A stretch of DNA of 64,000 nt, taken from Bryobacterales bacterium (GTDB lineage Bacteria > Acidobacteriota > Terriglobia > Bryobacterales > Bryobacteraceae). Location: positions 945,517 through 1,009,516 of the forward strand of contig CAVQLV010000004.1 of NCBI GenBank assembly GCA_963713415.1, written 5' to 3'. The first letter of the stretch is position 1; each line of letters begins with the position of its first letter. The notes under the pieces were generated by a model. The model made no database searches and was not told the origin of the DNA. It worked only from the letters and a program-made list of their open reading frames with translations. Position numbers and translations under genes: made by a program. Shown piece after piece: positions 1 to 27,407 of the stretch.

Positions 1-1129
1 GCGCCTTCTCCCATTTCTCAAAGTCGACGGTGCCCGGAAACGGCGTCAGCATAACGAACTGCGCGAAAGTGAGACGGGCTCTTTGGGCAAGATCATGTGT
101 GGCGTCAAACGTGTCCGGACGATCGCTCGGCAGGCCGAAGATAAACGAACCAAGAACATGAACGCCGTGATCGGAAAACGTCTTGAGCTGTTTTACCAGA
201 TCGTCGCCAGACAAGTTGAAATCCTTGTAGACCGATTTCAAGCCTTCGGGGGTAACGGCTTCCACACCCACCAGGGCGCCCTTGATCCGGGCTTTCTTCA
301 TGGCATCCAGAAACCCGGTGTCTTCCGCGGCCTCCATGGTGATCTGCGTGAAGAAGGTCATGTCTTTCGGCAGTTCCGACAGCCTCTCCATGAGTTCGAA
401 CCGTTCCTTGCGCATAGCCTCAAGCTGAGCGACCCTTGCCTGATTGTTCTGTCGCTTTGCAAGTTCGATGTCTGTCAGGGTGACGGGATAAAAATTGTCG
501 TCCGCCAAAGCGATGAAGCTGAAACCTCGGCGGCGCAGCTCTACAATTTCCTCGACGACGCTGTCGGTCGCCCGCTGCCGGGGGCGTTGTCCATCCGTGC
601 GCCATACCGAACAAAACGAGCAGTGTTTGGCGCATCCGCGCACCGTCTGCACGGATGCCCACATATAGCTGTTCGTGGGCAGCAGATCCCACCGGGCCGG
701 CTTCAGGTCAGCCGGTTCTACTTTTCCGCCGTTGTAAATGCGTTGAGGAACGCCGGCTGCGCAGTCACTGAGAACGCGGTTCCAGATAAGGTCGCCATCG
801 CCCTTCACCACCACATGTGCACCGCCCTGCTCAAATGGCTCCTCTGGATACAGTGTGGAATGGATTCCCCCGAACACAACCCAGGCGCCCCGCTCGCGTG
901 CCGCGCGGCCCACTTCGTATCCTCGTAATGCGTTGCCGGTGTGAATCCCAATGCCCACGACGTCGCCTCGCTGAACGCGCCCCAGATCCAGGTGTACCAG
1001 AGTCTCATCGCAGATTTCGGGATCTCCGAAGGATTGGGTAGTCGCTGCGGCCAGCACATAAAGCCATCGTGGCGTGATCACTGCGGTTCCGAAGGAGGTA
1101 TCGCTTGGATTGACGAGGTGTATGGTCAT
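1..1129 (-). CDS. B12-binding-domain radical SAM protein, C-terminus cut by the window edge
   Basis: Own translation from the ATG at 1129..1127: MTIHLVNPSDTSFGTAVITPRW...VVGIGIHTGNA...VVFGGIHSTLYPEE...VQTVRGCAKHCSFCSVW, which contains the CxxxCxxC radical SAM motif. The frame stays open to position 1, so it is absent from the ORF track. The + ORFs 83..928 and 941..1195 are its antisense shadows. Confidence 0.85.
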   Translation of the reverse strand, partial: MTIHLVNPSDTSFGTAVITPRWLYVLAAATTQSFGDPEICDETLVHLDLGRVQRGDVVGIGIHTGNALRGYEVGRAARERGAWVVFGGIHSTLYPEEPFEQGGAHVVVKGDGDLIWNRVLSDCAAGVPQRIYNGGKVEPADLKPARWDLLPTNSYMWASVQTVRGCAKHCSFCSVWRTDGQRPRQRATDSVVEEIVELRRRGFSFIALADDNFYPVTLTDIELAKRQNNQARVAQLEAMRKERFELMERLSELPKDMTFFTQITMEAAEDTGFLDAMKKARIKGALVGVEAVTPEGLKSVYKDFNLSGDDLVKQLKTFSDHGVHVLGSFIFGLPSDRPDTFDATHDLAQRARLTFAQFVMLTPFPGTVDFEKWEKA

Positions 1130-2681: not shown

Positions 2682-2709
2682 TTGACGAATGTTGCCTATT
2701 TGGTATTGT
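2682..2709 (+). promoter_or_regulatory. Candidate sigma70 promoter of the toxin-antitoxin operon
   Basis: TTGACG (2682-2687), a 16-nt spacer, then TATTGT (2704-2709), about 55 nt upstream of the antitoxin ATG. Confidence 0.35.
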
Positions 2710-2763
2710 TCAGATGCGACAAATCTTTCAATTGGAGAAGTCGCGCCAGCTGTACTCACCGAT

Positions 2764-2976
2764 ATGAATCGCACTGCTACTAAACCGAATAATCCGCACG
2801 TCTTTGAAGAGGCGCGGGAGGCCATCATCAAGCTCACGACGTTGAGCCGCGTTTTGACGCGTGCGGAACTCGAAACACTCGAACTGCTGTTCGATAAGCG
2901 GGCGATGACGATCATCGGCAAGAGTCTGGAGGAAGCAGAGCGCGGAACGTATGAGCCGATTACCACAATCCGGTAA
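2764..2976 (+). CDS. Type II antitoxin (Phd/YefM- or RelB-like)
   Basis: ATG at 2764 inside ORF 2689..2976. 70 aa. C-terminal ELETLELLFDKRAMTIIGKSLEEAERG is typical of antitoxin tails. The stop codon abuts the toxin start (TAA then ATG). Confidence 0.65.
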   Translation: MNRTATKPNNPHVFEEAREAIIKLTTLSRVLTRAELETLELLFDKRAMTIIGKSLEEAERGTYEPITTIR

Positions 2977-3270
2977 ATGGACGAACGCTATCGCGTCTAC
3001 ATCACCCCATCGGCCCGCAAAGAAGTGAAGCGCTTTCCGAAGCGTGTGAAAGACGCCATTCTCGACGCAAGCGCCATTCTTGAGCGGGAGCCGTTTGTCG
3101 GCGAGCGCCTCACGGGCTCGCTTCATATGCTCTACTCGTTCCATTTCGCTGCTGGCGAATCACAGTATCGGATCGCTTACAGCCTGGACCATCCGCGGCA
3201 ACTGGTGATCGTGCATCTGATCCACAACCGCGAGAATTTCTATGAGAAGCTCAAGCGGATCTTTCACTGA
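2977..3270 (+). CDS. RelE/ParE-family type II toxin
   Basis: 97 aa. MDERYRVYITPSARKEVKRFPKRVKDAI...YRIAYSLDHPRQLVIVHLIHNRENFY is the classic RelE/ParE pattern, placed directly after a small antitoxin ORF. Confidence 0.8.
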   Translation: MDERYRVYITPSARKEVKRFPKRVKDAILDASAILEREPFVGERLTGSLHMLYSFHFAAGESQYRIAYSLDHPRQLVIVHLIHNRENFYEKLKRIFH

Positions 3271-3389: not shown

Positions 3390-3938
3390 TTACCGTAAAA
3401 CCGCTTGCCCTATTACTCTAGTTGCTTCAACAATAAAATTTAAGAATTCCTGGCGCACGAGGAAAAAGCTTGGCTCCACAAGCCTGCGGAGTTCAGCAGC
3501 TTTGTGTACGTCATCGTGAAAATAGTGGCCGTTGATCCATAGGTCTGCAATCTGCTCCGGCTTTACCTCTTGCCCGTGAAATTTTAGGCTAAGTTGACTT
3601 CGCTGAACGTGCCGCTTCCATCCCTCTTGGTAGGTGACGATATGGCTCTTCAACTCATCGCTTGTGAAGTGCTTATGGCAGAGTCCATGGATGGAGCGGA
3701 TGAAAACTGGCTCGGTTGGACTGACAAACTTACGGAAGCTTATGAGATACGATCGGAGGTCTTCCTCATCTGGTTCAACGGACCGAAACATGGTCGGCTG
3801 ATTGACCCCAAATGACACCTGCCATTCGCTCGATAAGCCAGAAGAACGGAGAATGCGCATGCGGCTAAGTTCGTCCGTCCGCGTTACGAACAGTTCAAGC
3901 GTTTCCCGAGCCGATAAACCTGAGGCATGATGTCGCAT
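3390..3938 (-). CDS. Hypothetical protein (no recognisable motif)
   Basis: 182-aa ORF in a locally AT-richer stretch, with no competing ORF. Function unknown. Confidence 0.45.
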   Translation of the reverse strand: MRHHASGLSARETLELFVTRTDELSRMRILRSSGLSSEWQVSFGVNQPTMFRSVEPDEEDLRSYLISFRKFVSPTEPVFIRSIHGLCHKHFTSDELKSHIVTYQEGWKRHVQRSQLSLKFHGQEVKPEQIADLWINGHYFHDDVHKAAELRRLVEPSFFLVRQEFLNFIVEATRVIGQAVLR

Positions 3939-4052: not shown

Positions 4053-4841
4053 CTATCGGAGTAGGGCGTCCAAGGATAGCTCGTCCAACGATAGAAAATG
4101 GTATGCTCGCCGCTGCGCCGTAGACATCGTGGGATAGAGCGATGCCCGAAGTTTGTCGGCCCTCGCCGTGGTTTGGGTGACGATCGCGACTTGAAAATAG
4201 TCGATACCGAACTTCGCGACATGGCGCTGCTGTTGGTGATATGTGGCATAGGCGTTGATCTTCTGGGCGATGCGGGCGTGGGACATCGTGCCCACGTCCG
4301 CCTCTAGGAAGAAATGCAGTCTATTCTTCGCGGTTGGCGGGTTCGCGTACCGGAGAGTGAAATAGGCGTCCGGACGGATCGGGAGCTTTCCGTCCGTCGT
4401 CTCTACGCTGTCCCACAGTTTGGGCTGATCATGCTGCCAGGCTTCGAGCCGGATTTGGCCACTGCGAGGGAGAATCAGGAGTTTCGTATGGATGCTCGCG
4501 ACCAGAAGCGCGTGGGGGATCATGAGGTCCTTCCATTCCGTCTCCCGGCGTCGCCGATCGGTAAGCTCTTGGGGCGCATATCCGCCGTTTATGAGTACGG
4601 GGAAACCCTCGGAGCCAATCACGTACAGTCCCTTATGTGGCCTAGGCTTCAGGCGCGTGAGATACCGCTCCTCCCGGAGCTTCGGCAGGCGACGCTCCAG
4701 TGCTTTCTGCGAACGATTGGTGAGCACAGCCAGGTGGTCGATGGTCGCCACGCGAAGCTGGTAGACGTAATGCACGATCTCCGCGTCCCGCTCATTAAAT
4801 TGGAAACCGGTGCTGCTCATTGGTGGGGGGGATATGCCCAA
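4053..4841 (-). CDS. Replication-relaxation (Replic_Relax-like) family protein
   Basis: N-terminal wHTH-like FNERDAEIVHYVYQLRVATIDHLAVL...RRLPKLREERYLTRL and central LHFFLEADVGTMS match my recollection of PF13814 proteins from plasmids and ICEs. Needs an HMM check. The true start may be the Met at 4820. Confidence 0.6.
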   Translation of the reverse strand: MGISPPPMSSTGFQFNERDAEIVHYVYQLRVATIDHLAVLTNRSQKALERRLPKLREERYLTRLKPRPHKGLYVIGSEGFPVLINGGYAPQELTDRRRRETEWKDLMIPHALLVASIHTKLLILPRSGQIRLEAWQHDQPKLWDSVETTDGKLPIRPDAYFTLRYANPPTAKNRLHFFLEADVGTMSHARIAQKINAYATYHQQQRHVAKFGIDYFQVAIVTQTTARADKLRASLYPTMSTAQRRAYHFLSLDELSLDALLR

Positions 4842-5133
4842 CGGGTTGGTCTCGAAATTCTACCATCCATCGCGAAGTTTGATAATCGACGCCAACTTGA
4901 CCCATGTCCCAATCCGGTGTTCAATACGCGAGCTGCCTGCTCCTCTCTGCCTCCGGACGCGTCGAGTGTCCGCGCAATCGTGCAAGCGCCTTTCGCCAGC
5001 GACGAAATCGCACAACACCCGTTGCTGTAGAGGGCGCTTGCGCCCGCACGACGGCAGAGACAATCGGAACCGCTCTCAACGGCGGTTGGAGCAGACGCTT
5101 GCGTCATTGAGAGATGCTTCGCCTGCTTGGAGC

Positions 5134-5475
5134 GGGCAGCCCCCGTTGGGGGCTGCCCTCCCGTTCATTATTTTGAAAATCGTCGGAATCGGTTTGCCGG
5201 ATCTTTCCGGCAATCTTTTGAATTTTTTCCGGCTCGGCGTTGCCGAGCCGTGCACAACACCATTTGGAGAAGCGGCAATTGCCGCTTTCTCGGCTCACCA
5301 AGTAATTAGTTGTCGCCCACCAGGAGCCCGGAGCGGTTAGCGGAGGCCGCAGCCAGGCGGTTACGCCATGGCAAGGCGGCGATAGCGCCGGCTGATGCCG
5401 ATTTGGTCGATTCCCCACCTATTAGGTGGGCGACCCGAACGAAGTGAGCCGGTAGGAAAGCGGCATCAGCCGGCG
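5134..5475. repeat. Cluster of perfect hairpins and palindromes in a non-coding region
   Basis: GGGCAGCCCCC-GTT-GGGGGCTGCCC (5134-5158). GGCTCGGC-GTT-GCCGAGCC (5231-5249). GAAGCGGCAATTGCCGCTTC (5269-5288). CGCCGGCTGATGCCG (5386-5400) pairs with CGGCATCAGCCGGCG (5461-5475) and encloses CCCACCTA-T-TAGGTGGG (5414-5430). Confidence 0.8.
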
Positions 5476-5561
5476 GTTAAGCCGGCGACTGGTGGGCGTG
5501 CTAGTTACGCGATAGCACACGTTTTGCGGGCCTTTTGGCACGCGCGGTAGTTTACCAGGGT

Positions 5562-5602
5562 GTAGGAATGATTCCTACAGGCATTCCTACATGGATTCCT
5601 AC
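5562..5602. repeat. Iteron-like array of ATTCCTAC boxes
   Basis: GTAGGAAT-G-ATTCCTAC palindrome (5562-5578), followed by ATTCCTAC at 5583-5590 and 5595-5602. The three direct copies are phased at exactly 12 bp. There is an extra GTAGGAA at 5452-5458. Confidence 0.8.
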
Positions 5603-7402: not shown

Positions 7403-8101
7403 ATGGCCAAACAAGCGAACGTTATTTCCCATTGGGATCAGCTCATCGAGAATTTCCAAGCGTCATCGCTCGAATTCTACAACTCAGTCGAGAAGGCTCT
7501 TGAAGGACGGGCGGTGCCTGAGATCCACTGGTCGCGAGTTGAACACAAAGAGGGCGGCCTCGCGAGTGCCAAGCGGCAATACTTGCGCACGCACCGAGGC
7601 AAGTACGCATTCGATATCTGCGCCGCACCGTTTGGCACGGGATTCTTCGTTTCCTGGTGGTTTACGGAGCCGCCGCTCCCGTTTGCGTTCCTCTACACGC
7701 TCGCGTTTCTGTTTGCCGTCGTGATCGCGATGAATATTGCCTTCGGCGTTGGCATGGCGATCGGAGCTGCGATGAATGGCTATGCTCTCGGCCTCTTCCT
7801 TGGCGGATGCGTCGCCATCTTTGGTGTGCCGGCATTCTTGTGGCTCATCGGCAATGGTATCCGGCAAGGAACGATACCGGGGGAACGGACAGTGTTCGCG
7901 ATGCCGCTCGTTGGTTGGATCTATGAACGGATCTTTGCACGGTCGACCTTCTATGCCATGGACACGGCGCTCATGTTCCAGAAGGCGGTGCACCAGGCCG
8001 TCCAAGAGGTGATCGAGTGCATGACGGCGAATAAAGGCGTTCGGGCGCTCACCGAAGCCGAGCGCAAACCGATCATGAGGCAATTTGGGGCTTCCGCCTG
8101 A
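7403..8101 (+). CDS. Integral membrane protein, function unknown (first gene of a two-gene operon)
   Basis: 232 aa. Soluble N-terminal region of about 85 aa, a hydrophobic block FFVSWWFTEPPLPFAFLYTLAFLFAVVIAMNIAFGVGMAIGAAMNGYALGLFLGGCVAIFGVPAFLWLIG, and a soluble C-terminal tail. It ends 10 nt before the 8112 ATG. Confidence 0.7.
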   Translation: MAKQANVISHWDQLIENFQASSLEFYNSVEKALEGRAVPEIHWSRVEHKEGGLASAKRQYLRTHRGKYAFDICAAPFGTGFFVSWWFTEPPLPFAFLYTLAFLFAVVIAMNIAFGVGMAIGAAMNGYALGLFLGGCVAIFGVPAFLWLIGNGIRQGTIPGERTVFAMPLVGWIYERIFARSTFYAMDTALMFQKAVHQAVQEVIECMTANKGVRALTEAERKPIMRQFGASA

Positions 8102-8111
8102 GTTCTAGGTC

Positions 8112-11100
8112 ATGGCGTGCAACGGTCCTGCCTGGGAAGCGCTCACGCGCCAATTCTATGACTGGGAAACGCGAGGGAGAGGATGGCAGGTCTTTGACGC
8201 CCCCGTGGCGCTGGAACCGCCATTCCGGCAGTTCTTCGGTCACTTCGTATCGGCTCCGCCGGGAACTCCAGTAGATGATGGCCGCCGACCGACCTTCCTA
8301 AGCTCCGTTATCGACGGCATCTTCAAGCCGCCTGGGCGTCCGGAGATTGCCCCGCACGAGGAGACGGAACAGGAGCCGGTTTACGTAGCGAGCGATACTC
8401 GCCTCATTGAAGTACGCGCCGTCTTGCCACCTGAAACGAAGATCACGAAAGATGCCGCCACTCAATTCCTTATGAGCCTTGGCCATGGGTCTCGGCCGGC
8501 AAGCTTTGAGATTGTGGGAACCGATGAAGCAGTCATCGTGCAACTTGCCGCGGCCGAAAGCGACCGCAGGCAGGTGCGCGAACAGCTCCGAGCATACTTC
8601 CCGGAGGCATTACTCTCGGAATCGCGCGGCTACCTGGAAGCCCTCTGGGACACGACGGGCGCGAAAGCGACAGCGGTCGTCGACTTTGGCCTTTCGAAGG
8701 AATTCATGCGGCCGCTGCGCTCGTTCGAGCGTTTTGATCCCGATCCCTTGGCGGGACTCATTGGTGCCATGTCGGAGCTTGGTGCCGGTGAAGTTGCACT
8801 ATTCCAAGTGCTCTTTGTCCCCGTGCGCCATCCGTGGCCGGAGAGCATCATGCGCGCTGTGACCGACGGTGCGGGGGATTCGTTCTTCGTTGACGATCCC
8901 GTGATCGTGAAACTCGCGGAAGAGAAGATATCCTCGCCGCTCTTTGCGGCGATAATCCGCGTGGCTGCCCAGAGTCCGAAGAGCAAACAGGCTTGGCGGA
9001 TTGCTCAAGCTATAGGAAAATCGCTGCGGCAGTTCACGGAAGCCGGGAGCAACGAACTGATCCCGCTCGCAAATGATGGTTATGACGACGCGCAACATTC
9101 AGATAATGTGATCGCGCGGCGGAGCTGTCGCGCCGGGCTCATTGTGAACCGCGATGAATTGGTGTCGCTCGTTCATCTGCCCTCTGCCTCCGCGCGGTCG
9201 GCGAAGCTGAAGCGCGAAGAGCGCAAGACCAAAGGTGCGCCCTCGCTCGCGTTTGGCCATGCACTGATCCTTGGTGAAAACCATAACGTGGGCAAAACGG
9301 TGCGCGTTTCGATGAGCACCGAACAGCGTGTCCGGCATATGCACCTCATCGGTGCTTCGGGCAGTGGTAAATCCACCTTGCTCTTGAACCTCATCGTTCA
9401 AGACATCGAACAGGGGAGCGGGCTCGCCGTTCTCGATCCGCACGGCGATCTTATCGACCAAGTGATCACCCGTATTCCCGAGGAGCGAATCAAGGATGTG
9501 GTGCTTCTCGATCCGTCTGACGAAGCGTATCCCGTCGGCTTCAACATACTTTCGGCGCATTCCGATCTTGAGCGCAACCTTCTGGCTTCGGATTTAGTTT
9601 CAGTTTTCAAGCGGCTCTCGACGAGTTTCGGCGATCAGATGACGACGGTCCTGGGGAACGCGATTCTCGCGTTTCTTGAGAGCACGGAGGGAGGGACGCT
9701 GTCGGACTTGCGACGATTCTTAGTTGAGCCAGGCTTCCGGCGAGCGGTTTCTTCAACCGTCCAGGATTCCGAAATCGTCTATTACTGGCAGAAGGAATTC
9801 TCGCTCCTTACCGGCAAACCGCAAGGGCCGATCCTCACGCGGCTCGATACCTTCCTTCGGCCGAAGGTGATCCGGTATATGGTTTCGCAAAAAGAGAACC
9901 GGCTGGATTTTGCGGAGATCATGAACGGCCGGAAGATCCTGCTCGCAAAGCTCTCGCAAGGCCTGATCGGAGAGGAGAACTCCTATCTCTTGGGCACGCT
10001 CATCGTATCGAAGCTGAACCAAATCGCGACGAGTCGGCAGAACATGGCGGCGTCACTCCGCCAGCCGTTCTATCTCTACATCGATGAGTTCCATAACTTC
10101 ATGACGCCTTCGCTTGCGGCGATCCTGTCCGGCGCCCGGAAATACAATTTGGGGTTGGTGCTCGCGCATCAAGAATTGCATCAGCTCTCGAACCGCGACG
10201 GAGACATCGCTTCGGCCGTCATTTCAAATCCGTACACCCGCGTTTGCTTTCGCCTCGGGGACTTCGATGCGAAGAAACTCGAAGACGGATTCTCGTTCTT
10301 CAAAGCGAAGGATCTCCAAAACCTGAGTGTGGGCGAAGCGATCGTTCGTATGGAGCGGGCGGAATATGATTTCAATTTGAAAACCGTTCCGATGTCTTTG
10401 GTTGAGCCATCGCTTGCGGCAAGCCGCCGCGAAAGGATCGTTGCCTCTTCACGGGAACGATATGCGAGAAGCCGAGAAGAGGTGGAGACGGTTATCCGGG
10501 CTGGTCGCGAAGCGGCGGAGTCGGAGGTGGTTTCTCATGGGAAGCGGGCCAGATTGCGCGTGGAGATCCCGCTTCCTTCCACAAAGGGAGCGCGGGCGTC
10601 GGAAGCTCCGAACCAAACCGCAGAGCCACAAGCTCCCGGACGGGGAGGGGAACATCATAAGTATCTACAGCAGCTCATCAAACGTTGGGCGGAAGGCAGA
10701 GGATACCAGGTGACGCTCGAAAAGCCGGTACTCGACGGCATGGGTATCATCGATGTCGTTTTGGAGAAGGGCGGGCTCGCTCCCATTGCGTGCGAAATTT
10801 CCATCACAACACCGGTTGAACATGAACTGAAGAATGCAGAGAAGTGCCTGGTTGCCGGATACGAGCATGTCTTTCTCGTTGCCCCGGATAGGGATACACT
10901 CGCCCGCGTGAGGGCTCGCGCTACTTCGGTGTTGACTCCAGCCCAACTGAAGAAAGTTCGGTTCGTGCTACCCGAGGAAGTGTTTGCTTCAGTTTCAGTG
11001 CTCGATGCCGGGGCCACGTCGCGGGAAGGGGACGGGGCGAAGCAAGACTCAAAGGAACTGCTCACCGCCAAAGAGGTAGAAGAGCTCGTCCGGATCGATG

Positions 11101-11231
11101 TGAAGACAATCTATGGCTATGTGCAAAAGGGACTGATACCCTATGTTCGGATTCAGTCGAACCTGCGGTTTTTGAAGTCAGAAGTGCTCGCGTGGGTGGC
11201 GGACCACAGTTCGAAAAGGCGGAGAAGGTGA
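8112..11231 (+). CDS. Multidomain protein: unknown N-domain + TraD/VirD4-like ATPase + restriction-endonuclease-like module + excisionase/MerR-type HTH
   Basis: 1039 aa. Walker A GASGSGKST (aa 414-422). Walker B FYLYIDEFHNF (aa 653-663). LVLAHQELHQL. aa 845-927, HHKYLQQLIKRW...GIIDVVLEKGG...IACEISITT...EKCLVAGYEHVFLV, resembles a PD-(D/E)xK-type fold. aa 982-1030, LLTAKEVEELVRIDVKTIYGYVQKGLIPYVRIQSNLRFLKSEVLAWV, resembles an excisionase-family HTH. Confidence 0.75.
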   Translation: MACNGPAWEALTRQFYDWETRGRGWQVFDAPVALEPPFRQFFGHFVSAPPGTPVDDGRRPTFLSSVIDGIFKPPGRPEIAPHEETEQEPVYVASDTRLIEVRAVLPPETKITKDAATQFLMSLGHGSRPASFEIVGTDEAVIVQLAAAESDRRQVREQLRAYFPEALLSESRGYLEALWDTTGAKATAVVDFGLSKEFMRPLRSFERFDPDPLAGLIGAMSELGAGEVALFQVLFVPVRHPWPESIMRAVTDGAGDSFFVDDPVIVKLAEEKISSPLFAAIIRVAAQSPKSKQAWRIAQAIGKSLRQFTEAGSNELIPLANDGYDDAQHSDNVIARRSCRAGLIVNRDELVSLVHLPSASARSAKLKREERKTKGAPSLAFGHALILGENHNVGKTVRVSMSTEQRVRHMHLIGASGSGKSTLLLNLIVQDIEQGSGLAVLDPHGDLIDQVITRIPEERIKDVVLLDPSDEAYPVGFNILSAHSDLERNLLASDLVSVFKRLSTSFGDQMTTVLGNAILAFLESTEGGTLSDLRRFLVEPGFRRAVSSTVQDSEIVYYWQKEFSLLTGKPQGPILTRLDTFLRPKVIRYMVSQKENRLDFAEIMNGRKILLAKLSQGLIGEENSYLLGTLIVSKLNQIATSRQNMAASLRQPFYLYIDEFHNFMTPSLAAILSGARKYNLGLVLAHQELHQLSNRDGDIASAVISNPYTRVCFRLGDFDAKKLEDGFSFFKAKDLQNLSVGEAIVRMERAEYDFNLKTVPMSLVEPSLAASRRERIVASSRERYARSREEVETVIRAGREAAESEVVSHGKRARLRVEIPLPSTKGARASEAPNQTAEPQAPGRGGEHHKYLQQLIKRWAEGRGYQVTLEKPVLDGMGIIDVVLEKGGLAPIACEISITTPVEHELKNAEKCLVAGYEHVFLVAPDRDTLARVRARATSVLTPAQLKKVRFVLPEEVFASVSVLDAGATSREGDGAKQDSKELLTAKEVEELVRIDVKTIYGYVQKGLIPYVRIQSNLRFLKSEVLAWVADHSSKRRRR

Positions 11232-11390
11232 CACTCTCAGCCATTTTGGTGTCTGTTTGGTGTCTATTTTGAAAGGGCACCGGAGAGTTCTCTGGAGACT
11301 ATAGAGACTGTGCAGACTCGGCGTAAGAGAATGGAATGAACGGGATGCGCACCTGGTGCCGAAAGCTCAATGGTTTGCGTGAGCGCTGAG

Positions 11391-11413
11391 TTCGAATCCC
11401 CCCCTCTCCGCCA
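11391..11413 (+). other. tRNA-Ser-like 3' end (T-loop, T-stem 3' strand, acceptor 3' strand, GCCA), a probable att remnant
   Basis: TTCGAATCCCCCCTCTCCGCCA: T-loop TTCGAAT, CCCCC, CCTCTCC, discriminator G, CCA. The 5' T-stem partner (CTGAG) does not pair, so this is not an intact tRNA. Confidence 0.5.
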
Positions 11414-11477: not shown

Positions 11478-11648
11478 ATGGCGCTCAGCCTCTATCGCCG
11501 TCACCGCCGGGAGTGTAAAGCCGGGCATCCTCATAACCATCTCTCGAGCGAATTTGACGAACGGAAGCGCGGCTGGAAACGTTGCGAATGCCCGATCGTA
11601 ATCTCGGGAACGCTCGCCGGAAAGTTCCGCCGCCACAGCACCGGCAAG
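11478..11648 (+). pseudogene. 5' fragment (57 codons) of a tyrosine-type integrase
   Basis: MALSLYRRHRRECKAGHPHNHLSSEFDERKRGWKRCECPIVISGTLAGKFRRHSTGK matches my recollection of the Cys/His-rich N-terminus of acidobacterial site-specific integrases. It lies 65 nt downstream of the tRNA-like end. Similarity stops at 11648, where phoU-derived sequence begins on the other strand. Confidence 0.5.
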
Positions 11649-12174
11649 TTATCAGTTCCCTTGAGACCAGCTCCTTCAGAAAATCCACTTCGTCGTCGGA
11701 AATCAGAACCGTGCGAGCCAACTCTTCGTCACCATGCGCCAGCGCATCCAGGCTCCTGCGAACCATATTTTCGACCAGGCCTGCCATCCGCGGAATATCG
11801 ATCAATGGATTTACCGGCGCATGCCGCATCAGCGAGAGAGCCCGATGCGTGATGTTGACGGCCAGATCGCCCATCCGCTCCAGGTCGCCATTGATCTTGA
11901 TCGCGGCAGTCAGATAACGCATGTCCCCGGCCATAGGCTGATATAGCGCCAGCAGGCGGGTGGCAAACTCATCGATCTCAAGGTCCTTCTGATTGATGAG
12001 GGCCTCTTTCCAAAACACGTCCTTCGCCGCCGCCTCGTCGCGATGAACCAGCGCCACGATGCTTTGATGGATCGCCGATTCCACCAGTCCTGCCATCTCC
12101 AGAAGCCGGTTCTGCAATTCGTCCAGTTGTTCTCGAAAGCGAATCAACGTCTTGCTATGTCGCCCTTCCCGCAT
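11485..12174 (-). pseudogene. phoU: phoU, 3'-truncated (the homologous part is 11647..12174)
   Basis: The first PhoU repeat is intact (IRFREQLDELQNRLLEMAGLVESAI...INGDLERMGDLAVNITHRAL). The second repeat starts (LISDDEVDFLKELVSRELIT), then switches to unrelated CRCCGGGTFRRAF. The second ERxGDxxxNI motif is missing. Confidence 0.65.
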
Positions 12175-12369: not shown

Positions 12370-13500
12370 ATGACCACCACTGCAGAAACCTACGAATCCA
12401 TGCTTGAGCGGGTGTGCACCGATAGTGTCTGCCCCCACGCTGCTGCTGTCGATCGAGACAGCGCTTTTCCAACGGAGTCGATCCGGGTTCTCGCTGCGGC
12501 CGGACTTCTGGGCGCGCTCAGTTCCACCGGCTCCGGCGGCCTGGACCTCGGACTTCCCGGCGCCGCGCGCATCGTACGACGCATCGCCGAAGAGTGCGGG
12601 TCGACGGCCATGGTTTTGACGATGCACTATTGCGGTGTCGCGGTACTGGAGGCGCACGGGCCAAAGGAGGTTCGCGCTGCTGCAGCGTCGGGAGCACACC
12701 TCAGCACGCTGGCATTTAGCGAATCTGGAACGCGGAGCCATTTCTGGGCACCTGTCGGCACCGCATCCTCGCTCGATGGAAAGGTCCAACTGAACGCCAG
12801 CAAGAGCTGGATCACATCGGCTGCGCACGCTACGGCCTACGTCTGGTCATCGCGTCCGCTCGCGGCAGAGGGCGCGAGCACCATCTGGCTGGTTCCCGCG
12901 TCGTCGCCCGGACTTACCGTGGCAGGCCCGTTCGAAGGCTTGGGGCTTCGCGGCAACGACTCGTCACCGGTCCGAGCGGAGGATGTCCACGTCCCTCCGG
13001 CCGCGATGCTCGGGGGCGACGGCCAAGGATTCGAAATGATGATGAACATCGTGCTGCCGACGTTCGCGGTTTTGACCGCGGCCTGCTCGAACGGTCTGAT
13101 GTCGGGCGCCATCCGCCGGACAGTGGAGCACGTCACCAGCACGCGCCACAGCGATACGGGCGCTGCTTTGTCGGAGCTGCCCACGATCCGAAACTACGTC
13201 GCACGAATGCGCGTGAAGGCAGATCTTTCAGACGCTCTGCTCGGCGACACTATCGCGGCAATCACCGCCAAGCGGGCCGACGCCATGCTGCGCGTACTGG
13301 AGTGCAAGGCGGCGGCCGGAGAATCCGCCAACGAAGTGCTCGATCTGGCGATGAGGGTATGCGGTGGCTCTGCGTTTCGGAAAGAGGTTGGAGTCGAGCG
13401 ATTCTTTCGCGATGCGCGGGCGGCCGGCGTCATGGCGCCCACCACCGACGTCCTCTACGATTTTCTGGGGAAAGCCGTCTGCGGCATGCCGCTGTTCTGA
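12370..13500 (+). CDS. Acyl-CoA dehydrogenase-fold flavoprotein lacking the catalytic Glu (oxygenase/oxidase-type)
   Basis: ATG at 12370 with GAGGAAAG upstream. ACAD-like throughout (GLLGAL..., WITSAAHA, GFEMMMNIVLP, RFFRDARA). The position of the usual YEGT catalytic Glu reads GVMAPTTDVLYDF. Confidence 0.75.
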   Translation: MTTTAETYESMLERVCTDSVCPHAAAVDRDSAFPTESIRVLAAAGLLGALSSTGSGGLDLGLPGAARIVRRIAEECGSTAMVLTMHYCGVAVLEAHGPKEVRAAAASGAHLSTLAFSESGTRSHFWAPVGTASSLDGKVQLNASKSWITSAAHATAYVWSSRPLAAEGASTIWLVPASSPGLTVAGPFEGLGLRGNDSSPVRAEDVHVPPAAMLGGDGQGFEMMMNIVLPTFAVLTAACSNGLMSGAIRRTVEHVTSTRHSDTGAALSELPTIRNYVARMRVKADLSDALLGDTIAAITAKRADAMLRVLECKAAAGESANEVLDLAMRVCGGSAFRKEVGVERFFRDARAAGVMAPTTDVLYDFLGKAVCGMPLF

Positions 13501-13513
13501 ACGGAATCAAGAC

Positions 13514-14371
13514 ATGACCGAGAATCCACTTCTGTTGGGCGCTGTCGCCTATGACCCGAAAGTCGTCACGATCTGGGATGGTTTTCAGAGTTATTTCAAT
13601 TCGCACGGACTTGAATTCGATTACGTGCTCTATACCAACTACGAACGTCAGGTGGAGGCGCTTTTGGCCGGCCACATTGACGTCGCCTGGAATTCGCCGC
13701 TGGCCTGGCTACAGGCCGAACGGATCGCAGGCCAGCTCGGGCAACGTGCCGCGGCCATTTGCATGCGTGACACGGACCGCGACCTTGTTTCCGTGATCGT
13801 GACGCGCGAGGGCGGTCCTGTTCGGAGCGTAAGCGACCTGAAGGGCCGCCGTGTCGCGGTTGGCGCGAAGGATTCACCGCAAGCGACGCTTATTCCGCTT
13901 TATCACATCGCGCAACAAGGTCTTGAGCCGAATCGCGACTTTGAGGTGCTCCCTTTCGACCAGTTGGCCGGCAAGCACGGGGACCACATCGGAGGGGAAC
14001 GCGATGCCGTGCGGGCACTCATTCGCGGAGACTGCGATGCCGCCTGCCTGATCGACGGCAACCTTCTTCTGTTCGCGCAGGAGGGCACTCTTCCGGCGGG
14101 GTCCGTCCGCACGATTGCGGCCACGCCTTTGTACGATCATTGCAACTTCACTGTAATCGATGGCAGAATGTCCAGTTCACTGGAACTTTTCCGGAAACTC
14201 CTGCTCGCCATGTCCTACGAAGATCCCGATGTTCGCCGGCTTCTCGACCTGGAGGGCTTAAAACGCTGGCTGCCCGGCCGAACAGATGGCTACCAGCTCC
14301 TGTCGAATGCAGTCGGTCATTTTGGGTACCTCGACGAGTTCGTCCGGGCCGTGGCCGCGAGATGCGCGTAG
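13514..14371 (+). CDS. PhnD/SsuA-type substrate-binding-fold protein without a signal peptide
   Basis: ATG at 13514. MTENPLLLGAVAYDPKVVTIWDGFQSYF...HIDVAWNSPLAWL...GRRVAVGAKDSPQATLIPL is typical of PhnD-like periplasmic-binding-fold proteins, but there is no hydrophobic leader. Confidence 0.7.
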   Translation: MTENPLLLGAVAYDPKVVTIWDGFQSYFNSHGLEFDYVLYTNYERQVEALLAGHIDVAWNSPLAWLQAERIAGQLGQRAAAICMRDTDRDLVSVIVTREGGPVRSVSDLKGRRVAVGAKDSPQATLIPLYHIAQQGLEPNRDFEVLPFDQLAGKHGDHIGGERDAVRALIRGDCDAACLIDGNLLLFAQEGTLPAGSVRTIAATPLYDHCNFTVIDGRMSSSLELFRKLLLAMSYEDPDVRRLLDLEGLKRWLPGRTDGYQLLSNAVGHFGYLDEFVRAVAARCA

Positions 14372-16521: not shown

Positions 16522-17544
16522 CTACGTCCCAAAATTCTCGTTGAGTGCGGCGATTGTCCTCCAGAACGCGCGCCAAAGGCTGAAGTGGTCAGCCGGCAAA
16601 CCAAGCGCCGTAATCGTCAAGTTGTAGCAGAGCTTTCGAATAGGCTTTATGAATGCCCACCCGTAAGCGCGGAGCATCAGGACGTTGTCTGTTGTATCGA
16701 TTAAGGACATGCCCGCGGCGAAGAGCGCCGGGAAGACCAGGATTGTCCACAATGGCAGTCCCGTTGACGCTTCCGAGGCGGATAGCCCAAGAGTCCGATC
16801 TCCGTTGCTGTATCGAAGCCGAGGCCAAACAGCAAACCCAGCGGGTACATATGAGAACTCTTGCGAATCAGCGCAAACATCGGACGGAAGAAGCGAAACA
16901 GCAAGCCTCGGCTATTGAGCAGCAAGTCGAAGTCTTCTTCGCGGTATCGCTCACCGCGCCGGACCCGACGGAAAGCGAGATAGGTCCAACAGAGTACAAA
17001 TGCGTTGACGATGGCTATTCCGAAAAGGAACAGAGAAGACACGAGCGTTCCAATGACGCCCCCGATTTGTTTTGCGGATTCGACGTGGTGCTGCAGACAG
17101 AGAGCTGCGCCGGCAATCATGATCGACCCGAGGATCACGATTCGTGGAATGTCCGAGCGAGAACATGAAGCCGGCGGCGACGGGGTGCTTTCCCTCCTGC
17201 ATCAGCTTGCGGGTTACGTTGTCGATGCCTGCAATGTGATCGGCATCCACCGCGTGACGCAGCCCAAAACTGTAGGCAAGAAAAGCGGTTCCCAGGAGAA
17301 CCGGAAAATGGCGAAACGCCACGACGGCCCAAATTCACACTCCACAATTTAGCGCAAGAAGGAATCCGTAGAGTGCAAGACCTTTGGCTCGGACGTTGTC
17401 CGTTGCGTCGTCGAGGACGCTCAGCAATAGCCGATGCATGGAGTTCTTGGTCAGAGCCTCACTGAGAACAGCTTCGATGGGCTGTGCGACGGGATTGTTA
17501 GCTGGTGGTGTCACTCGTCTCGATATGGCCGACAACTGCGACAT
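16522..17544 (-). pseudogene. hoxN: NiCoT (HoxN/NixA) nickel/cobalt permease with at least 3 frameshifts
   Basis: Four consecutive minus-strand ORFs in different frames tile one NiCoT protein: 17335..17544 (RAKGLALYGFLLALN), 16951..17322 (LGTAFLAYSFGLRHAVDADHIAGIDNVTRKLMQEGK...FSLGHST, the HX4DH signature), 16701..17138 (HMYPLGLLFGLGFDTATEIGLLG) and 16522..16752 (FPALFAAGMSLIDTTDNVLMLRAYGWAF). Confidence 0.85.
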
Positions 17545-17547
17545 CCA

Positions 17548-20008
17548 TCAAAAACTCCTTCGTATCCCGAATCGTATCTGAAACGGTTCTACCGGGTGGA
17601 AAACGTCTGTGAATGCCGCATCGGCCGTTGGTGTTATCCGGGCTGTAATAGGCGTAGTCGATCTCGTGATCCTTGCCGTTCCGCAAATTCAAAGCCTCGA
17701 CGACAAAACTCCATTTCCTGGTGATTCGATAACGGACCTCGGCATTGAGCAGTACCGTCGAAGCAGAACGATAAATTCCGTCCGAAGTCAGATCCCGGGG
17801 ACCAAAGGCGCGCAGGCGCAAACTCGCCGAAAAGCGTTTGTAATCATGCATCGTGGCGCCTGCTGACGCCACCAATCCCACCGCTTCGGGTACCCGCTTG
17901 CCACCGGGGCTGTTCGGCGCCGCGTCATCCGCGTCGATATGGGTAAAAAAGGCTCTGGAATCCGCAAAGTCAAAATCAAAAGCCCAATGTTCGAGCGGCG
18001 TGTAGTAGTTCGCCCATTCAATGCCATAACGGTTGCTCGGCGACAACGAAGCGACCGTTCCTCCGGTGTCGCCATCCTGCAGCAGTTCGGATTGACTGTG
18101 GAGGTACCAGAGTGAAAATGTGCTTTGCAGATGTGGAGCGGCGGTAGTGCGCACGCCGACTTCCGACCCCTTCGTTTGGATTAGGGCCGGGATTCTCGAC
18201 GTGGCCGTGGGAAATGGATTGTCCGGCGAAATCGGTTCCTCCTTCTGCGTTGCACCACGCGCGTCGTTGCTGTGGAAACTGAATCCGCCCTGTACATAGA
18301 ACTCAGTCTTGGACCAGGGGCCGAAAATCAAACTCGCTTTGGGTTCGGGCATGAATTGGGTGACCGTGCCCGAATTGGCGGCCGCAAAGTTGACTACCGG
18401 AGCGCCGGGTAATTCGGTGGCGGTGTAACTCGGCGTCAGGCTGGTGACGTTATCGAATACTTCGTCGCCGCGGAAGGCGAGGACTGTGCGGAATCTTTCC
18501 GCCCACTGAAGTTTGTTCTCCACGTAAAAGCCGAACATCGTCTCGGTGAACCGATTCACATCCGTGTCCGCGGGCAAGACGGCTACCAGGTTCGGATCGC
18601 TGTTACATGCGTCGATGGGTTCGTCATTGCACGCGTTGATATCGTTCTTGTCCGTGCGCGCGCGGTTGTCGGTCCGGTAAAGGCCGTTGTGCACCCAATC
18701 GTTGCGGACCTGCAGGCCGAAGGTATTCTCCACCTTGCGGCCGAACCAATTGTTGAAAAGTGTATGGCGTACGTCGACTCCAAGCACAAAGCGGCTGTCC
18801 TGCTGTTCGAACTGATCACCCTTGACGGGGTCATCCAGGTAGTAAGTGAAATCCGAAAACAGATCGAGGTAGTAGTAGAAACCGTAGGCCATGATCTGCG
18901 TTCTGGAATGATCGTTCTGGCGATGCCATTCCGCCTGCAGGCTATGACGCTGCGAATTGCCGCCGTCAGTGGGGTTCAGCGCGCCGAAGAAACCAACCAG
19001 GGGCACCGCGGCGATCGGGATCTGGTCGCTTGAGTACCAGTTTCCGTGATAAGTGTGGGCCGTGATACTGAACCCATTGGCTTCATCGCCCTGGCTGTAG
19101 GTCAGGAGGCCGTTTAACTTGGAATAATTGTCCGAATATGTCCATGGACCGTCGTCGTGATAGAACTCGCCGCCGAAGAGCAAGTTGCCCGAGCCGACCT
19201 TTTCCGATACGCCGAAGACGGCCCGCTCATACCCATACATGCCGCCTTCCACCTGGAAGAAGTTCTCGGGCAGCGTCTTGTAGAATTCCAGATGGGCCGA
19301 CCCGGCTGAGCCATAATCGCCGACATCGGCGTAATAGGGACCTTTCTCGTAATTCACCCGCTGCACAAGCTCCGGGATGACGATGTTCATGTCCGCGTAC
19401 CCCTCGCCGTGCGCATGCGACGGCAGGTTCAGTGGCATATCATCGAGGAAAACGGCAAAATCCGTGCCGTGGTCGAGGTTGAAGCCCCGAAGGAAATATT
19501 GGTTCGCCTTGCCACCGCCGGCGTGTTGCGTGATGATGACGCCGGGTACCGTCTCCAAAACTTCCCCTGAACGAAGAATGGGACGATCCTCAAGTTCCGT
19601 TTGGCCCACCGTTCCCTGGGTGGCGGACTGGGCGATTCCGGTAAGGTCATCCGCGCGACCTTGCACGTTTACGCTGGGTCTCACAGACCCCAGGGCCAAA
19701 GAGATGCGGAATGGGGCGGGCGCCTCGGCGCCTATCGTGACGGGAATTTCTTTGGTTTCAAAATCGGCGTGAGATACCACGAGCCGATAATTACCTGCCG
19801 AGAGTCCGGAGATTGTGAAGGAGCCATTCGTATCCGACTCGGTCGTTTTGAGTACGGTACGGTTCGCGCTTTGAACCTGCACGGCGGCCCCGGCGACCCC
19901 GGCGCCAGAGGAATCGACGACAGTTCCCGATACAACCACGTCCGCGGCCCAGGCACACCACATTGTCGCGAAGAGGATGGAAGTGATGACGACCGGGCGT
20001 CGGGGCAT
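17548..20008 (-). CDS. TonB-dependent receptor with a CarboxypepD_reg N-domain; frameshift about 30 codons from the 3' end
   Basis: Signal peptide, VSGTVVDSSGAGVAGAAV...NGSFTISGLSAGNYRLVV, plug and barrel motifs. The annotated frame ends in unrelated sequence at 17498. The adjacent frame reads ...ADAAFTDVFHPVEPFQIRFGIRRSF*, a canonical TBDR C-terminus, stopping at 17548. The shift lies near the C/G run at about 17640-17650. Confidence 0.85.
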
Positions 20009-20071: not shown

Positions 20072-20140
20072 ACGTATCAAACGGTGTTACGCACCAGGCG
20101 GGTGCTTCGGATTTCTGACCCGTCGGACAGGAGCCCGACA

Positions 20141-20280
20141 ATGGGTGGATTGGCGCGCATTGGAATTGCGATTCCCGAAGAGCTATTGGAGGACTTCGAC
20201 CGGCTGATCGAGAAACGCGGCCATGCAACTCGGTCTGAGGCCGTGCGCGACCTTGTGCGCCAGGAGTTCGCAAACGATCA
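20141..20280 (+). pseudogene. nikR: nikR, only the ribbon-helix-helix N-terminal ~45 codons remain
   Basis: [43 protein letters not shown] is a NikR/CopG RHH domain. The reading frame then runs straight into IstB sequence. No metal-binding C-domain was found in the flanking sequence I read. Confidence 0.7.
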
Positions 20281-21035
20281 GCAATGGACCTGGCGCGAGA
20301 ATCAGGCCCTCGCGCGGCGGTTGCACGCCGCCAAACTCAAGGACGGCGCCTGCGTGGAAGAGATCGACTATCGCGCAACTCGTGGCTTGGACAAAAGCGC
20401 CATCCGTGCTTTGGCGCAGAAATTGGTCTGGGCTCAGAATCACGAAAACATTTTCGTGCTCGGGCCCACAGGTGTTGGCAAGAGCTTCGTGGCTTGCGCA
20501 CTGACACAGAAGGCGTGCAGCGATGGATACTCGGCGCTTTACACTAGCGCCGCCGCGCTGTTTCGCGATCTGGCCATCGCGCCGGCCGACGGTAGCCTGC
20601 GCAGTTTGCTGGCCCGCCTGAGCCGCATCGACGTGCTGGTGATCGACGACTGGGCCCTCGCTCCACTCGCCGAACCGAGCGCCGCGACTTCCGGGAGTTC
20701 TGCGAGGATCGCTATCAACCTCGCTCGACCATCCTGACTTCGCAGCTTCCCGTCTCGCGCTGGCACGAGCAAGTCGGCGATCCAACCGCCGCCGACGGCC
20801 TGGTTCACAACGCTCATCGCATCGAAATGCGCGGCGATTCTATGCGCGAGAAACGCAGTCCTGAGCCGTCGGGCTAGCGCTAGCGCTCCGGATCGGTTTC
20901 TCTTGGCGAAGACGAACACTTTTTGCAAAATCGAGTTGCCAGCATCGCGACGCTCCGAGATCTGTTCGCCTTCGGCCCGGAATGCCGTTCGCGCTCCCTT
21001 CGGAATCAGCGTTCGCCTTCGGCGGAATCCTCAAC
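20281..21035 (+). mobile_element. istB: IS21-family remnant: 5'-truncated, frameshifted istB plus terminal repeat array
   Basis: [16 protein letters not shown]...[12 protein letters not shown]...[19 protein letters not shown]...[14 protein letters not shown], then a frameshift near 20680 into [59 protein letters not shown] (stop 20876). Three ~22-bp direct repeats (C)GTTCGCnnTCnnGGAAT lie at 20963-21030, like IS21 multiple terminal repeats. No istA. Confidence 0.75.
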
Positions 21036-27049: not shown

Positions 27050-27375
27050 CGCATCGAGATGCCAGTGTGCTAATACCCTTCGACCAGACCCACAACCCTG
27101 GACACGGGGGCAGCAGTTCAAATCCCTTGCGAATTCCCGACGGAACCAAGGCGAAAAGGCCCGCACCAAGCTCAATATTACGCGCCCAAGAGAACTGGCG
27201 TATGGTGCGAGCCCAAATCCGTAACGACAGTGGACTCGGCTTATGCCACGATCGAGGCCAACCGCACCCCTTTGCGCCCCTATAGGACGCAAGTGTCTGG
27301 AACCGGCTGCGCGGGTTCGCGAGACGTTCACCTTCGCGTACCAGCACGGCGGGGCCCTCGCTGTTCGATGTATGG
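27050..27375 (+). pseudogene. 3' relic of a second czcC-like outer-membrane factor gene
   Basis: The nucleotide stretch ccgacggaaccaaggcgaaaaggcccgcaccaagct parallels czcC ccggaaccaaggcgaaaaagcccgcacgaaact. The peptide EPAARVRETFTFAYQHGGALAV parallels czcC EQAVRVRESVTLAYQHGGASLL. Frames are broken. Confidence 0.6.
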
Positions 27376-27407
27376 CACGCATTAATAGGCAAAATGGGGG
27401 CGATAAA

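Follow-up and report, generated by a model that had tools for sequence, protein, structure and literature searches.

A coupling-protein-like ATPase with a fused nuclease-type domain and a membrane partner: a candidate DNA-transfer module at the end of an integrative island in a Bryobacterales bacterium

The present study examined a 64,000-nucleotide stretch of the genome of a Bryobacterales bacterium (assembly GCA_963713415.1, contig CAVQLV010000004.1, positions 945,517 to 1,009,516 of the forward strand; hereafter the window) and in particular two adjacent genes within it, which encode a 232-aa membrane protein and a 1039-aa protein of several domains. On the strength of sequence comparisons we favour, with moderate confidence, the reading that these two genes are a DNA-transfer (mobilisation or conjugation) motor of an integrative mobile element. 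This reading is preferred because the ATPase of the large protein carries type IV coupling protein (T4CP) signatures of Pfam above cut-off and has TrwB and DotL as its nearest solved proteins; because distant homologs of its N-domain and ATPase are T4CP-like genes in Gram-positive conjugation clusters; because a Replic_Relax gene is present in the window and in 19 of 88 related loci, which were analysed by open reading frame (ORF) calling and HMMER and represent no fewer than 12 phyla, lineages of the candidate phyla radiation (CPR) among them; because the membrane partner lies upstream in nearly all of these loci and the large protein is itself free of transmembrane segments, matching described classes of T4CPs; because the context is that of a mobile element, with a tRNA-derived attachment (att) site, recombinases and variable cargo slots; and because approximately 50% identity is retained across phyla, repeats are conserved at the island end and the family is nearly absent from viral contigs.

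Both ORFs lie where the original prediction, which was made from the letters of the sequence, had placed them, with a gap of 10 nt between them, and its parsing of the large product into an N-terminal part, an ATPase, a nuclease-like block and a helix-turn-helix (HTH) was correct (Table 1). By Kyte-Doolittle scan the 1039-aa protein has no hydrophobic or transmembrane segment, and aa 90-153 of the 232-aa protein form a conserved hydrophobic core of approximately two to three transmembrane helices, between a soluble N-terminal part of ~85 aa and a soluble C-terminal part of ~75 aa. For this smaller protein 715 homologs were retrieved; it matched no family in Pfam, NCBIfam, PADLOC or PHROGs, and neither VirB3 nor PrgI. 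The ATPase core of the large protein scored above cut-off against the Pfam models TrwB_AAD_bind (PF10412; 39.5 bits, cut-off 20.5), T4SS-DNA_transf (PF02534; 25.9 bits, cut-off 20.1) and TraG-D_C (PF12696; 26.9 bits, cut-off 22), and a profile search against the PDB returned TrwB as the best match (3.3e-8), then DotL (1.4e-7) and HerA (3.3e-5), with DptH also among the sequence matches. K420, D658, E659 and both Walker motifs are invariant across 22 homologs. Membership of the HerA and FtsK families was dropped because the scores fall below the cut-offs: FtsK_SpoIIIE (PF01580) reached 14.8 bits against 24, in the P-loop region only, the HerA equivalog models 15.6 bits against 800, and DUF87 21.2 against 23.2. 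From these profile matches we assign the 1039-aa protein to the T4CP (TrwB/VirD4/TraD) lineage, as a member without a transmembrane domain of its own.

The N-domain (aa 1-400) had no match in the copy of Pfam that was searched directly, and its assignment to DUF8128 comes from the precomputed annotation of homologs; a literature search found no paper on DUF8128. Taken alone, the domain falls into 1261 clusters at 50% identity and is mostly located at the N-terminus of proteins of ~1000 aa. Its AlphaFold2 (AF2) model (pLDDT 90.3, pTM 0.86) is an alpha/beta multi-sandwich whose top PDB matches in Foldseek are TrwK/VirB4 chains of the R388 type IV secretion system (T4SS; E 1.5e-4, prob 1.0, TM-score 0.37), with BBE-like oxidases ranking after them. 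Sequence homology to VirB4 was not found, either in the PDB profile search or by hhalign: against the VirB4-like AAA_10 protein of a Gram-positive cluster hhalign gave a probability of 0.7%, and the Pfam model of the VirB4 family, CagE_TrbE_VirB, did not match the 1039-aa protein. The likeness of the model to the N-terminal domain of VirB4, a weak resemblance at the level of the fold, may be used as a lead only.

The original prediction had guessed that aa 845-927 form a nuclease fold, and an AF2 model of aa 835-1039 (pLDDT 81, built from 12 homologs) together with its structural matches bears this out. The core is ordered alpha-beta-beta-beta-alpha-beta and is followed by the HTH, and the best PDB matches in Foldseek are all PD-(D/E)xK enzymes (AF1548, NucS/EndoMS, Bax1, SfsA, the R2 restriction-like endonuclease, PaqCI and Can2); a PD-(D/E)xK fold for aa 843-975 is thus supported by the model. 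Residues H849, E870, D881, E895, E905, N908, K911 and C912 are 98-100% conserved among 81 sequences from many phyla. D881 on strand 2 and E895 on strand 3, both 99-100% conserved, occupy the canonical catalytic positions, the position of the canonical lysine is taken by S897 (an 'ExS' motif), and the invariant K911 sits on the following helix. An active site in this modelled block is plausible. The block was found in 87 of the 88 related loci.

A link to conjugation emerged from a tblastn search of PLSDB, which found distant homologs of the large protein (21-28% identity, 812-913 aa) on B. licheniformis NZ_CP035190, B. subtilis NZ_OX419581 and Embleya NZ_CP108778 that are annotated as 'DUF87 domain-containing' or 'T4SS conjugative DNA transfer family' proteins. 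The region aligned by hhalign, aa ~130-780, takes in two-thirds of the N-domain and the ATPase (prob 99.5% for B. licheniformis and 100% for Embleya). These homologs are directly followed by a Replic_Relax gene and lie amid TcpC, TcpD, TcpE, PrgI, TrbL_4, NlpC/P60 and VirB4-like AAA_10 genes; the nuclease and the HTH are absent from them, and the Embleya protein has an N-terminal transmembrane helix of its own. The original prediction had raised the possibility that homologs of the same four-domain layout are routine coupling proteins of complete T4SS modules: no four-domain homolog was found inside such a module, and what holds of that possibility is that distant, nuclease-less relatives sit there. 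Relatives also occur on Haloferax pHV1 and Sulfolobus plasmids and in Bacillus jumbo phages. Among the jumbo phages, distant homologs of the N-domain and ATPase were seen in EF583821 (0305phi8-36 ORF201) and JN638751 (phage G gp156), and phrog_5156, whose function is unassigned, matches aa 270-803 (5.6e-59).

A relaxase-class gene is also present in the window itself, ~2.5 kb upstream of the pair. The earlier statement that no canonical MOB relaxase is nearby was mistaken, since this gene belongs to the Replic_Relax family (PF13814), which in CONJscan constitutes the MOBC class of relaxases (PMC5357655) and whose proteins have a PD-(D/E)xK fold with an HTH (PMC3424549). Its PHROG annotation reads 'replication initiation by nicking', and in loci L005 and L015 (related loci are given here by L numbers) the Replic_Relax gene adjoins the 232-aa gene divergently.

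The family of the large protein is widespread. More than 3700 metagenomic homologs were found, the best 120 of which are nearly all ~1040 aa long, and a scan of GTDB species genomes returned at least 506 relatives. The best 80 of these 506, which share ~47-55% identity, belong to Acidobacteriota, Planctomycetota, Verrucomicrobiota, Nitrospirota, Thermodesulfobacteriota, Binatia, Bacteroidota, Chloroflexota, Hydrogenedentota, Sumerlaeota and several CPR lineages, and since identity remains at about 50% across such distant phyla, horizontal spread is the best explanation. Viral contigs almost never carry the family, with 3 loci among 2.9 million. In 82 of the 88 loci the large gene is immediately preceded, in the same orientation, by a gene for a homolog of the 232-aa protein, and most of the other loci are contig ends. 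A gene for a small ATPase occurs within 10 kb in ~35 of the 88 loci, often at the head of a three-gene operon (as in L007); in L007, L021, L023, L035 and others it shares one operon with the pair and immediately precedes it. The ortholog of this small ATPase in the related element L089 aligns to positions 9312-10487 of the window, which encode the ATPase core of the large gene, with 32% identity (E 1e-55).

Comparison with related loci places the gene pair at the right edge of an integrative island that ends at position 11413. Non-coding homology downstream of the large gene to L009, L012 and L018 breaks off exactly at this position, and repeats between the stop codon and the att site are conserved in four elements. 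The island end itself resembles the 3' half of a tRNA: L012 retains both an intact T-arm (GTGGG-TTCGAAT-CCCAC) and an intact acceptor/CCA end, and in the window the T-stem is degenerate. Neither ARAGORN nor Rfam supports a tRNA there, and the tRNA reading of the remnant rests on the comparison with L012. No second copy of the att repeat was found in the 64-kb window. Nor does the window contain an intact tRNA, so that the intact copy should lie beyond the left edge. The acceptor sequence of the remnant (11383-11413) suggests a tRNA-Ser-like target. In a sister lineage the large gene lies ~240-600 bp upstream of an intact tRNA-Gly(CCC) (L001, L007, L015 and L021), this tRNA being farther away in L005, L014 and L020, and L001 has analogous repeats ahead of it. 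When L002 is compared at its position 13719 with L001, L003 and L004, the sequence is identical as far as the anticodon loop of tRNA-Gly(CCC) and then continues into another flank. This alternative junction may have arisen by a second insertion, or it may mark a tandem island or an excised form; as to a circular form, the flank beyond the junction contains no L089-type integrase coding sequence.

Complete relatives (L089, L090 and the P0398 contig) are ~17-20 kb long and show the layout of such an element: the att site, the large protein, the 232-aa protein, then a divergent Replic_Relax gene, toxin-antitoxin genes, the small ATPase, a Toprim primase and a ~640-aa protein with a weak RepA-like match, followed by DUF932 in the P0398 contig and by a tyrosine integrase at the far end of L089 and L090. 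None of them carries mating-channel genes. Variable slots of related elements contain toxin-antitoxin genes and defence cargo (nSTAND1, AbiEii and methyltransferases). A full-length large serine recombinase is encoded in 40 of 82 non-redundant loci; in at least 22 loci its gene starts 25-700 bp beyond the large gene and in the same orientation. Whether an att site or a recombinase gene comes next, the large gene always occupies the last place before it. In nine Acidobacteriaceae-type loci the recombinase is followed by a truncated comM, and because truncated comM stands beside elements of the serine-recombinase type, comM appears to be a recurrent insertion site. Truncated comM (Mg-chelatase/YifB) was noted in L022-L028, L044, L045 and L077, ~1.6 kb and up to 9.5 kb downstream of the large gene, and comM fragments also in L035, L036, L043, L048, L052, L080 and L086 and in L038 at 106-657. 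In L038 (Binatia) the place that the recombinase holds in other elements, after the large gene, is taken by a ParA-type ATPase gene (13259-14026), and Pfam matches that would clarify transfer were not found for the upstream genes of this locus.

A gene pair for a PDDEXK_1 protein and a SWIM-like protein was found in ~10 loci, and a Toprim protein in 13. This conserved pair consists of a PDDEXK_1 protein of ~266 aa and a protein of ~300 aa with a SWIM-like zinc-finger motif and is encoded 2-5 kb before the large gene in L007 (6100-7894) and also in L021, L025, L030, L036, L043, L045, L046 and L065, elements in which no Replic_Relax was detected; it may be an alternative DNA-processing module. 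Kinship of the fused nuclease with the neighbouring Replic_Relax or PDDEXK_1 proteins found no support (hhalign prob 8% and 0.2%, respectively).

At the C-terminus of the large protein, the excisionase/MerR-type HTH that had been called from the sequence is confirmed by Pfam (HTH_17, aa 983-1032, 39.8 bits against a cut-off of 27, E 5.3e-10); Foldseek matches of the tail include BldC, MerR and the RdfS excisionase, and PHROG_66, 'excisionase and transcriptional regulator', matches aa 971-1038. HTH_17 is restricted to certain lineages (6 of 40 diverse family members), and the C-terminus of most other members is an 'RGYKVKV + basic helix' tail, which accompanies a serine recombinase directly downstream. 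Of 62 loci without HTH_17, 26 have a large serine recombinase that starts within 3 kb downstream, versus 0 of 18 loci with HTH_17, counts that take no account of phylogeny. L037 and L066 are two independent HTH_17 fusions, each directly followed by a tyrosine integrase gene, and L008 and L017, also of the HTH_17 type, have serine recombinases located upstream. As judged from these loci, the type of tail appears to track the recombinase arrangement and to be swappable between lineages.

Such a link to recombination would fit an explanation in which the module acts inside the cell, in the element's own life cycle, and does not move DNA from cell to cell. The tail would then be similar to a recombination directionality factor or bind att or arm sites, the nuclease and motor would resolve, process, replicate or segregate the excised circle, and the membrane protein would only localise the complex. 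The invariable last place of the large gene before att or recombinase agrees with this, as do the excisionase-type character of HTH_17 with its PHROG_66 match, the tracking of recombinase by tail type, and the integrase genes that directly follow the fusions in L037 and L066; so do the replication genes aboard (Toprim primase and the weakly RepA-like protein), the second annotation of Replic_Relax as a nicking replication initiator, the ParA gene of L038 and the absence of mating-channel genes from the elements examined. We nevertheless regard an intracellular role as unlikely, given that the ATPase core belongs to the lineage of conjugative T4CPs and has distant homologs within conjugation clusters, that a strictly co-conserved membrane partner is hard to reconcile with a purely cytoplasmic role, and that the tail and recombinase counts ignore phylogeny, with the upstream serine recombinases of L008 and L017 departing from the pattern.

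Several observations weigh against a DNA-transfer motor. Replic_Relax was detected within 10 kb in only those 19 loci, about a fifth of the total. As originally predicted, VirB-type channel and pilus genes are absent, none having been detected by Pfam in the window genes scanned to ~36 kb or in related elements; VirB6, VirB8, VirB9, VirB10, pilins and hydrolases were not found on the elements examined that carry the full four-domain protein, and since mating-pair-formation genes are lacking and the hosts are mostly diderm, self-transfer is left unexplained. Scores against curated NCBIfam equivalogs are far under their cut-offs (SXT_TraD 43.6 bits against 366; conju_CD1115 40.9 against 250), and we know of no tested precedent for a T4CP-nuclease fusion. 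When the window was searched by tblastn with the serine recombinase, tyrosine integrase, Toprim and L089 backbone proteins, none was found; this copy of the element may be decayed, its missing primase, RepA-like and integrase genes having been lost or lying beyond the left edge. Lastly, the combination of a HerA/FtsK-type ATPase with a nuclease is typical of defence systems, and the best single match of the ATPase core in PADLOC is mad8 of the MADS system (66 bits, 9.5e-19).

These last points lead to the proposal that the gene pair, with or without the small ATPase, serves in anti-phage or anti-plasmid defence or exclusion, the membrane-tethered motor loading on foreign DNA and the fused nuclease degrading it. 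ATPase, nuclease and membrane protein together are a common logic of defence systems, and the active-site-like residues of the nuclease are invariant. Apart from mad8, PADLOC gave a match to mad1 (2.9e-5) and weak matches to DndH and HerA, the MADS1 HTH model of NCBIfam was matched at 1.4e-8 (34.8 bits, cut-off 80), the PDB sequence search also returned DptH, and the neighbouring slots hold nSTAND1, AbiEii and methyltransferase cargo. The module thus shares with HerA/FtsK-plus-nuclease systems and MADS the P-loop superfamily, a PD-(D/E)xK nuclease and an HTH_17 resembling Mad1, but it lacks their other defining genes: weak P-loop matches aside, mad2-mad7 are not found among the neighbours, and the matches to defence models are at the level of domains and under curated cut-offs. 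Membership of MADS was rejected, the full mad1-mad8 set being absent and the scores falling under the curated cut-offs. The homology also reaches T4CP-like genes of conjugation clusters. Moreover, the pair is fixed at the end of the element or before the recombinase and is its most conserved gene set while the cargo varies, which is the behaviour of a backbone and not of cargo; the idea of a free-standing defence cassette, which had been entertained for this locus, does not agree with this position, and we consider a defence function quite improbable.

Described conjugation systems provide nearer counterparts. The original judgement that the architecture does not belong to a described system was too strong, since there are records both of T4CPs that lack a transmembrane domain and act together with a small membrane protein and of MOBC elements that encode a T4CP themselves (PMC7434980). 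In the TraG-TraJ pairs of IncH plasmids a membrane partner of ~200 aa is encoded beside the T4CP, in pIP501 (TraJ/TraI) a T4CP without a transmembrane domain relies on a small membrane protein, and some T4CPs have acquired C-terminal domains (PMC7434980). The present pair appears similar in that an ATPase of the coupling type without transmembrane segments is encoded beside a membrane protein of ~200 aa, which we propose as its anchor; unlike those pairs, it has a DUF8128 N-domain, a PD-(D/E)xK domain and a DNA-binding tail, its membrane protein belongs to no known family, and no T4SS channel genes are linked to it. MOBC1 mobilisable plasmids, of which CloDF13 is the prototype, carry their own T4CP, and in CloDF13 a MobC relaxase of the restriction-endonuclease type is accompanied by the plasmid's own coupling protein MobB (PMC7434980). 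The elements described here likewise combine a PF13814 protein, a predicted relaxase, with a T4CP-like ATPase of their own and no mating channel. They differ from CloDF13 in being integrative (with a tRNA-derived att site and a tyrosine or serine recombinase) and not small plasmids, in having a second ATPase, in the fusion of nuclease and HTH to the T4CP, and in the presence of Replic_Relax in only about a fifth of loci. With the proteins of the Tcp/Prg-type Gram-positive clusters they share the homologous N-domain and ATPase and the linkage to Replic_Relax, whereas the cluster proteins are shorter, free of nuclease and HTH, and located inside full T4SS clusters.

Two further comparisons concern a transfer apparatus without an outer channel. 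As in VirB3-VirB4, the gene of a small membrane protein immediately precedes that of a large ATPase composed of a ~400-aa N-domain and a P-loop C-domain; however, the TM-score is 0.37 only, there is no relation between the sequence profiles, and the ATPase core is nearer to TrwB and DotL. Streptomyces TraB is an FtsK-like conjugative translocase of double-stranded DNA whose C-terminal winged helix-turn-helix (wHTH) reads 8-bp repeats at clt. By analogy, the large protein may resemble TraB as a membrane-associated ring ATPase with a C-terminal reader of short repeats of its own element and no T4SS channel, although TraB has its own transmembrane domain and an FtsK-type motor, and the protein described here is of the T4CP type, is fused to a nuclease and occurs mostly in diderm hosts.

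In the mechanism that we infer for a DNA-transfer motor, which comprises membrane tethering, ring assembly, DNA binding, cleavage and cell-to-cell transfer, the co-translated 232-aa protein would anchor the 1039-aa protein at the inner membrane, and the ATPase would form a ring, presumably a hexamer, that pumps the DNA of the element. The HTH_17 tail would recognise the short repeats that follow its own stop codon and precede the att end of the island, the PD-(D/E)xK domain could nick or cut at these repeats, alone or with the MOBC-type Replic_Relax protein, and the small paralogous ATPase may be a second motor subunit. As recognisable mating-channel genes are lacking, transfer would probably proceed via a helper T4SS, in the manner of CloDF13-type MOBC elements, which supply a coupling protein of their own. 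A less likely alternative is that the module is itself a minimal translocon: it is conceivable, though doubtful, that the 232-aa protein, the 1039-aa protein and the small ATPase constitute a self-sufficient DNA translocon, a core similar to VirB3/VirB4/VirD4 or to TraB with no outer channel.

Table 1. Features of the gene pair, the island end and the neighbouring genes (positions in the window)
Feature	Position (nt)	Strand	Basis or remark
232-aa membrane protein	7403..8101	+	ORF; coordinates as in the original prediction
1039-aa multidomain protein	8112..11231	+	DUF8128 N-domain, T4CP-type ATPase, variable linker, PD-(D/E)xK-fold domain, HTH_17 tail
N-domain, aa 1-400	8112..9311	+	Pfam PF26449 = DUF8128 assigned in homologs
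P-loop ATPase core, TrwB/VirD4/TraD type, aa 401-775	9312..10436	+	Pfam and PDB profile search
Walker A, aa 414-422	9351-9377	+	GASGSGKST, K420
Walker B, aa 654-661	10071-10094	+	YIDEFH, D658/E659
Pro/Ala/Glu-rich linker, aa 776-842	10437..10637	+	Variable length, low conservation in alignment of homologs
PD-(D/E)xK-fold (restriction-endonuclease-like) domain, aa 843-975	10638..11036	+	AF2 model, Foldseek, residue conservation
C-terminal HTH_17 (excisionase/MerR-type) domain, aa 982-1032	11055..11207	+	Pfam, Foldseek
Right end of island	11232..11413	+	Repeats, then tRNA-3'-half remnant resembling att repeat
Tandem TTTGGTGTC repeats	11245, 11256	+	Sole two copies in 64 kb
GAGACT/CAGACT repeats (three)	11295-11318	+	Between stop codon and att-like end
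tRNA-3'-half remnant, ending ...GTTCGAATCCCCCCCTCTCCGCCA (read as GCGCTGAGTTCGAATCCCCCCCTCTCCGCCA)	11383-11413	+	Comparison with L012
PhoU housekeeping gene	11485-12174	-	Metabolic genes beyond
Small TraD/HerA-like ATPase, 445 aa, no transmembrane segment	1272-2609	-	Paralog of the ATPase core of the large protein; backbone gene
Antitoxin	2689-2976	+	Toxin-antitoxin cargo
RelE/ParE-like toxin	2977-3270	+	L005 homologs annotated ParE-like_toxin
182-aa protein, no assignment	3390-3938	-	
Replic_Relax PF13814, wHTH + PD-(D/E)xK, MOBC relaxase / nicking-initiator class	4053-4841	-	Pfam 82.8 bits, 4.2e-23; backbone gene
467-aa coiled-coil protein, C-terminal hydrophobic segment	5656-7059	-	Variable cargo between Replic_Relax and the pair

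Elsewhere in the window, the listed ORF of the small ATPase (1272-2966) over-extends the N-terminus, homologs being 430-450 aa long. The gene for the 467-aa protein had been considered as a possible part of the conserved neighbourhood, an idea that was abandoned, as no homolog was found in any of the 88 related loci and database matches are weak coiled-coil ones only; the slot between Replic_Relax and the pair holds other genes elsewhere, for example nSTAND1. Positions 29-1054 (minus strand) gave a weak blastx match to a ~512-aa ORF of L052 (21% identity over 378 aa, E 7e-8); no long ORF is present there, and the segment may be a degraded gene at the position of the Toprim primase of related elements. 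A weak tblastn match (32% identity, E 2e-7) was likewise obtained at 4916-5590 (plus strand) to a 306-aa protein of L089, whose gene sits divergently beside Replic_Relax; the window ORF at 4810-5340 is shorter than this protein, and the gene may therefore be frameshifted. Insertion sequence genes at 20084-20737 and 34793-36091 encode an IstB-like ATPase with a ribbon-helix-helix (RHH) domain and a Mutator-family transposase. A three-gene resistance-nodulation-division (RND) efflux operon at 27243-33078 (outer-membrane factor, HlyD-type adaptor and an AcrB-type pump, also of 1039 aa) and the TonB-dependent receptor genes at 17498-20008 and 24586-25536 are ordinary chromosomal genes of a diderm host.

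The coupling-protein theme itself is already known; new are the DUF8128 N-domain, the strictly conserved fused nuclease, the exchangeable DNA-binding tail and the location on small integrative elements that lack recognisable mating channels, in phyla whose conjugation has received little study, and the pair is best read as an unusual form of DNA-transfer machinery rather than as a new defence system. To our knowledge, horizontal gene transfer has hardly been charted in Acidobacteriota, Verrucomicrobiota, Planctomycetota, Nitrospirota and CPR bacteria, and the family marks widespread small integrative elements whose only transfer-type genes are those of a membrane protein and one or two coupling-protein-like ATPases. 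Even the Gram-positive plasmids with distant homologs are typed as 'non-mobilizable' by MOB-suite, as given by PLSDB. If the fused nuclease and tail serve as relaxase and as reader of the origin of transfer (oriT), the family would represent a new solution to conjugative DNA processing, provide a marker gene for such elements and give DUF8128 a functional context. If the module instead acts within the cell, a motor-nuclease coupled to site-specific recombination would also be new. Should the module prove to be a translocon in its own right, one polypeptide would recognise the element's DNA through a swappable tail, nick or cut it through a built-in equivalent of a relaxase and pump it, which would amount to an undescribed mode of conjugation for small integrative elements of Acidobacteriota, Planctomycetes-Verrucomicrobia-Chlamydiae (PVC) phyla, Nitrospirota, Chloroflexota and CPR bacteria.

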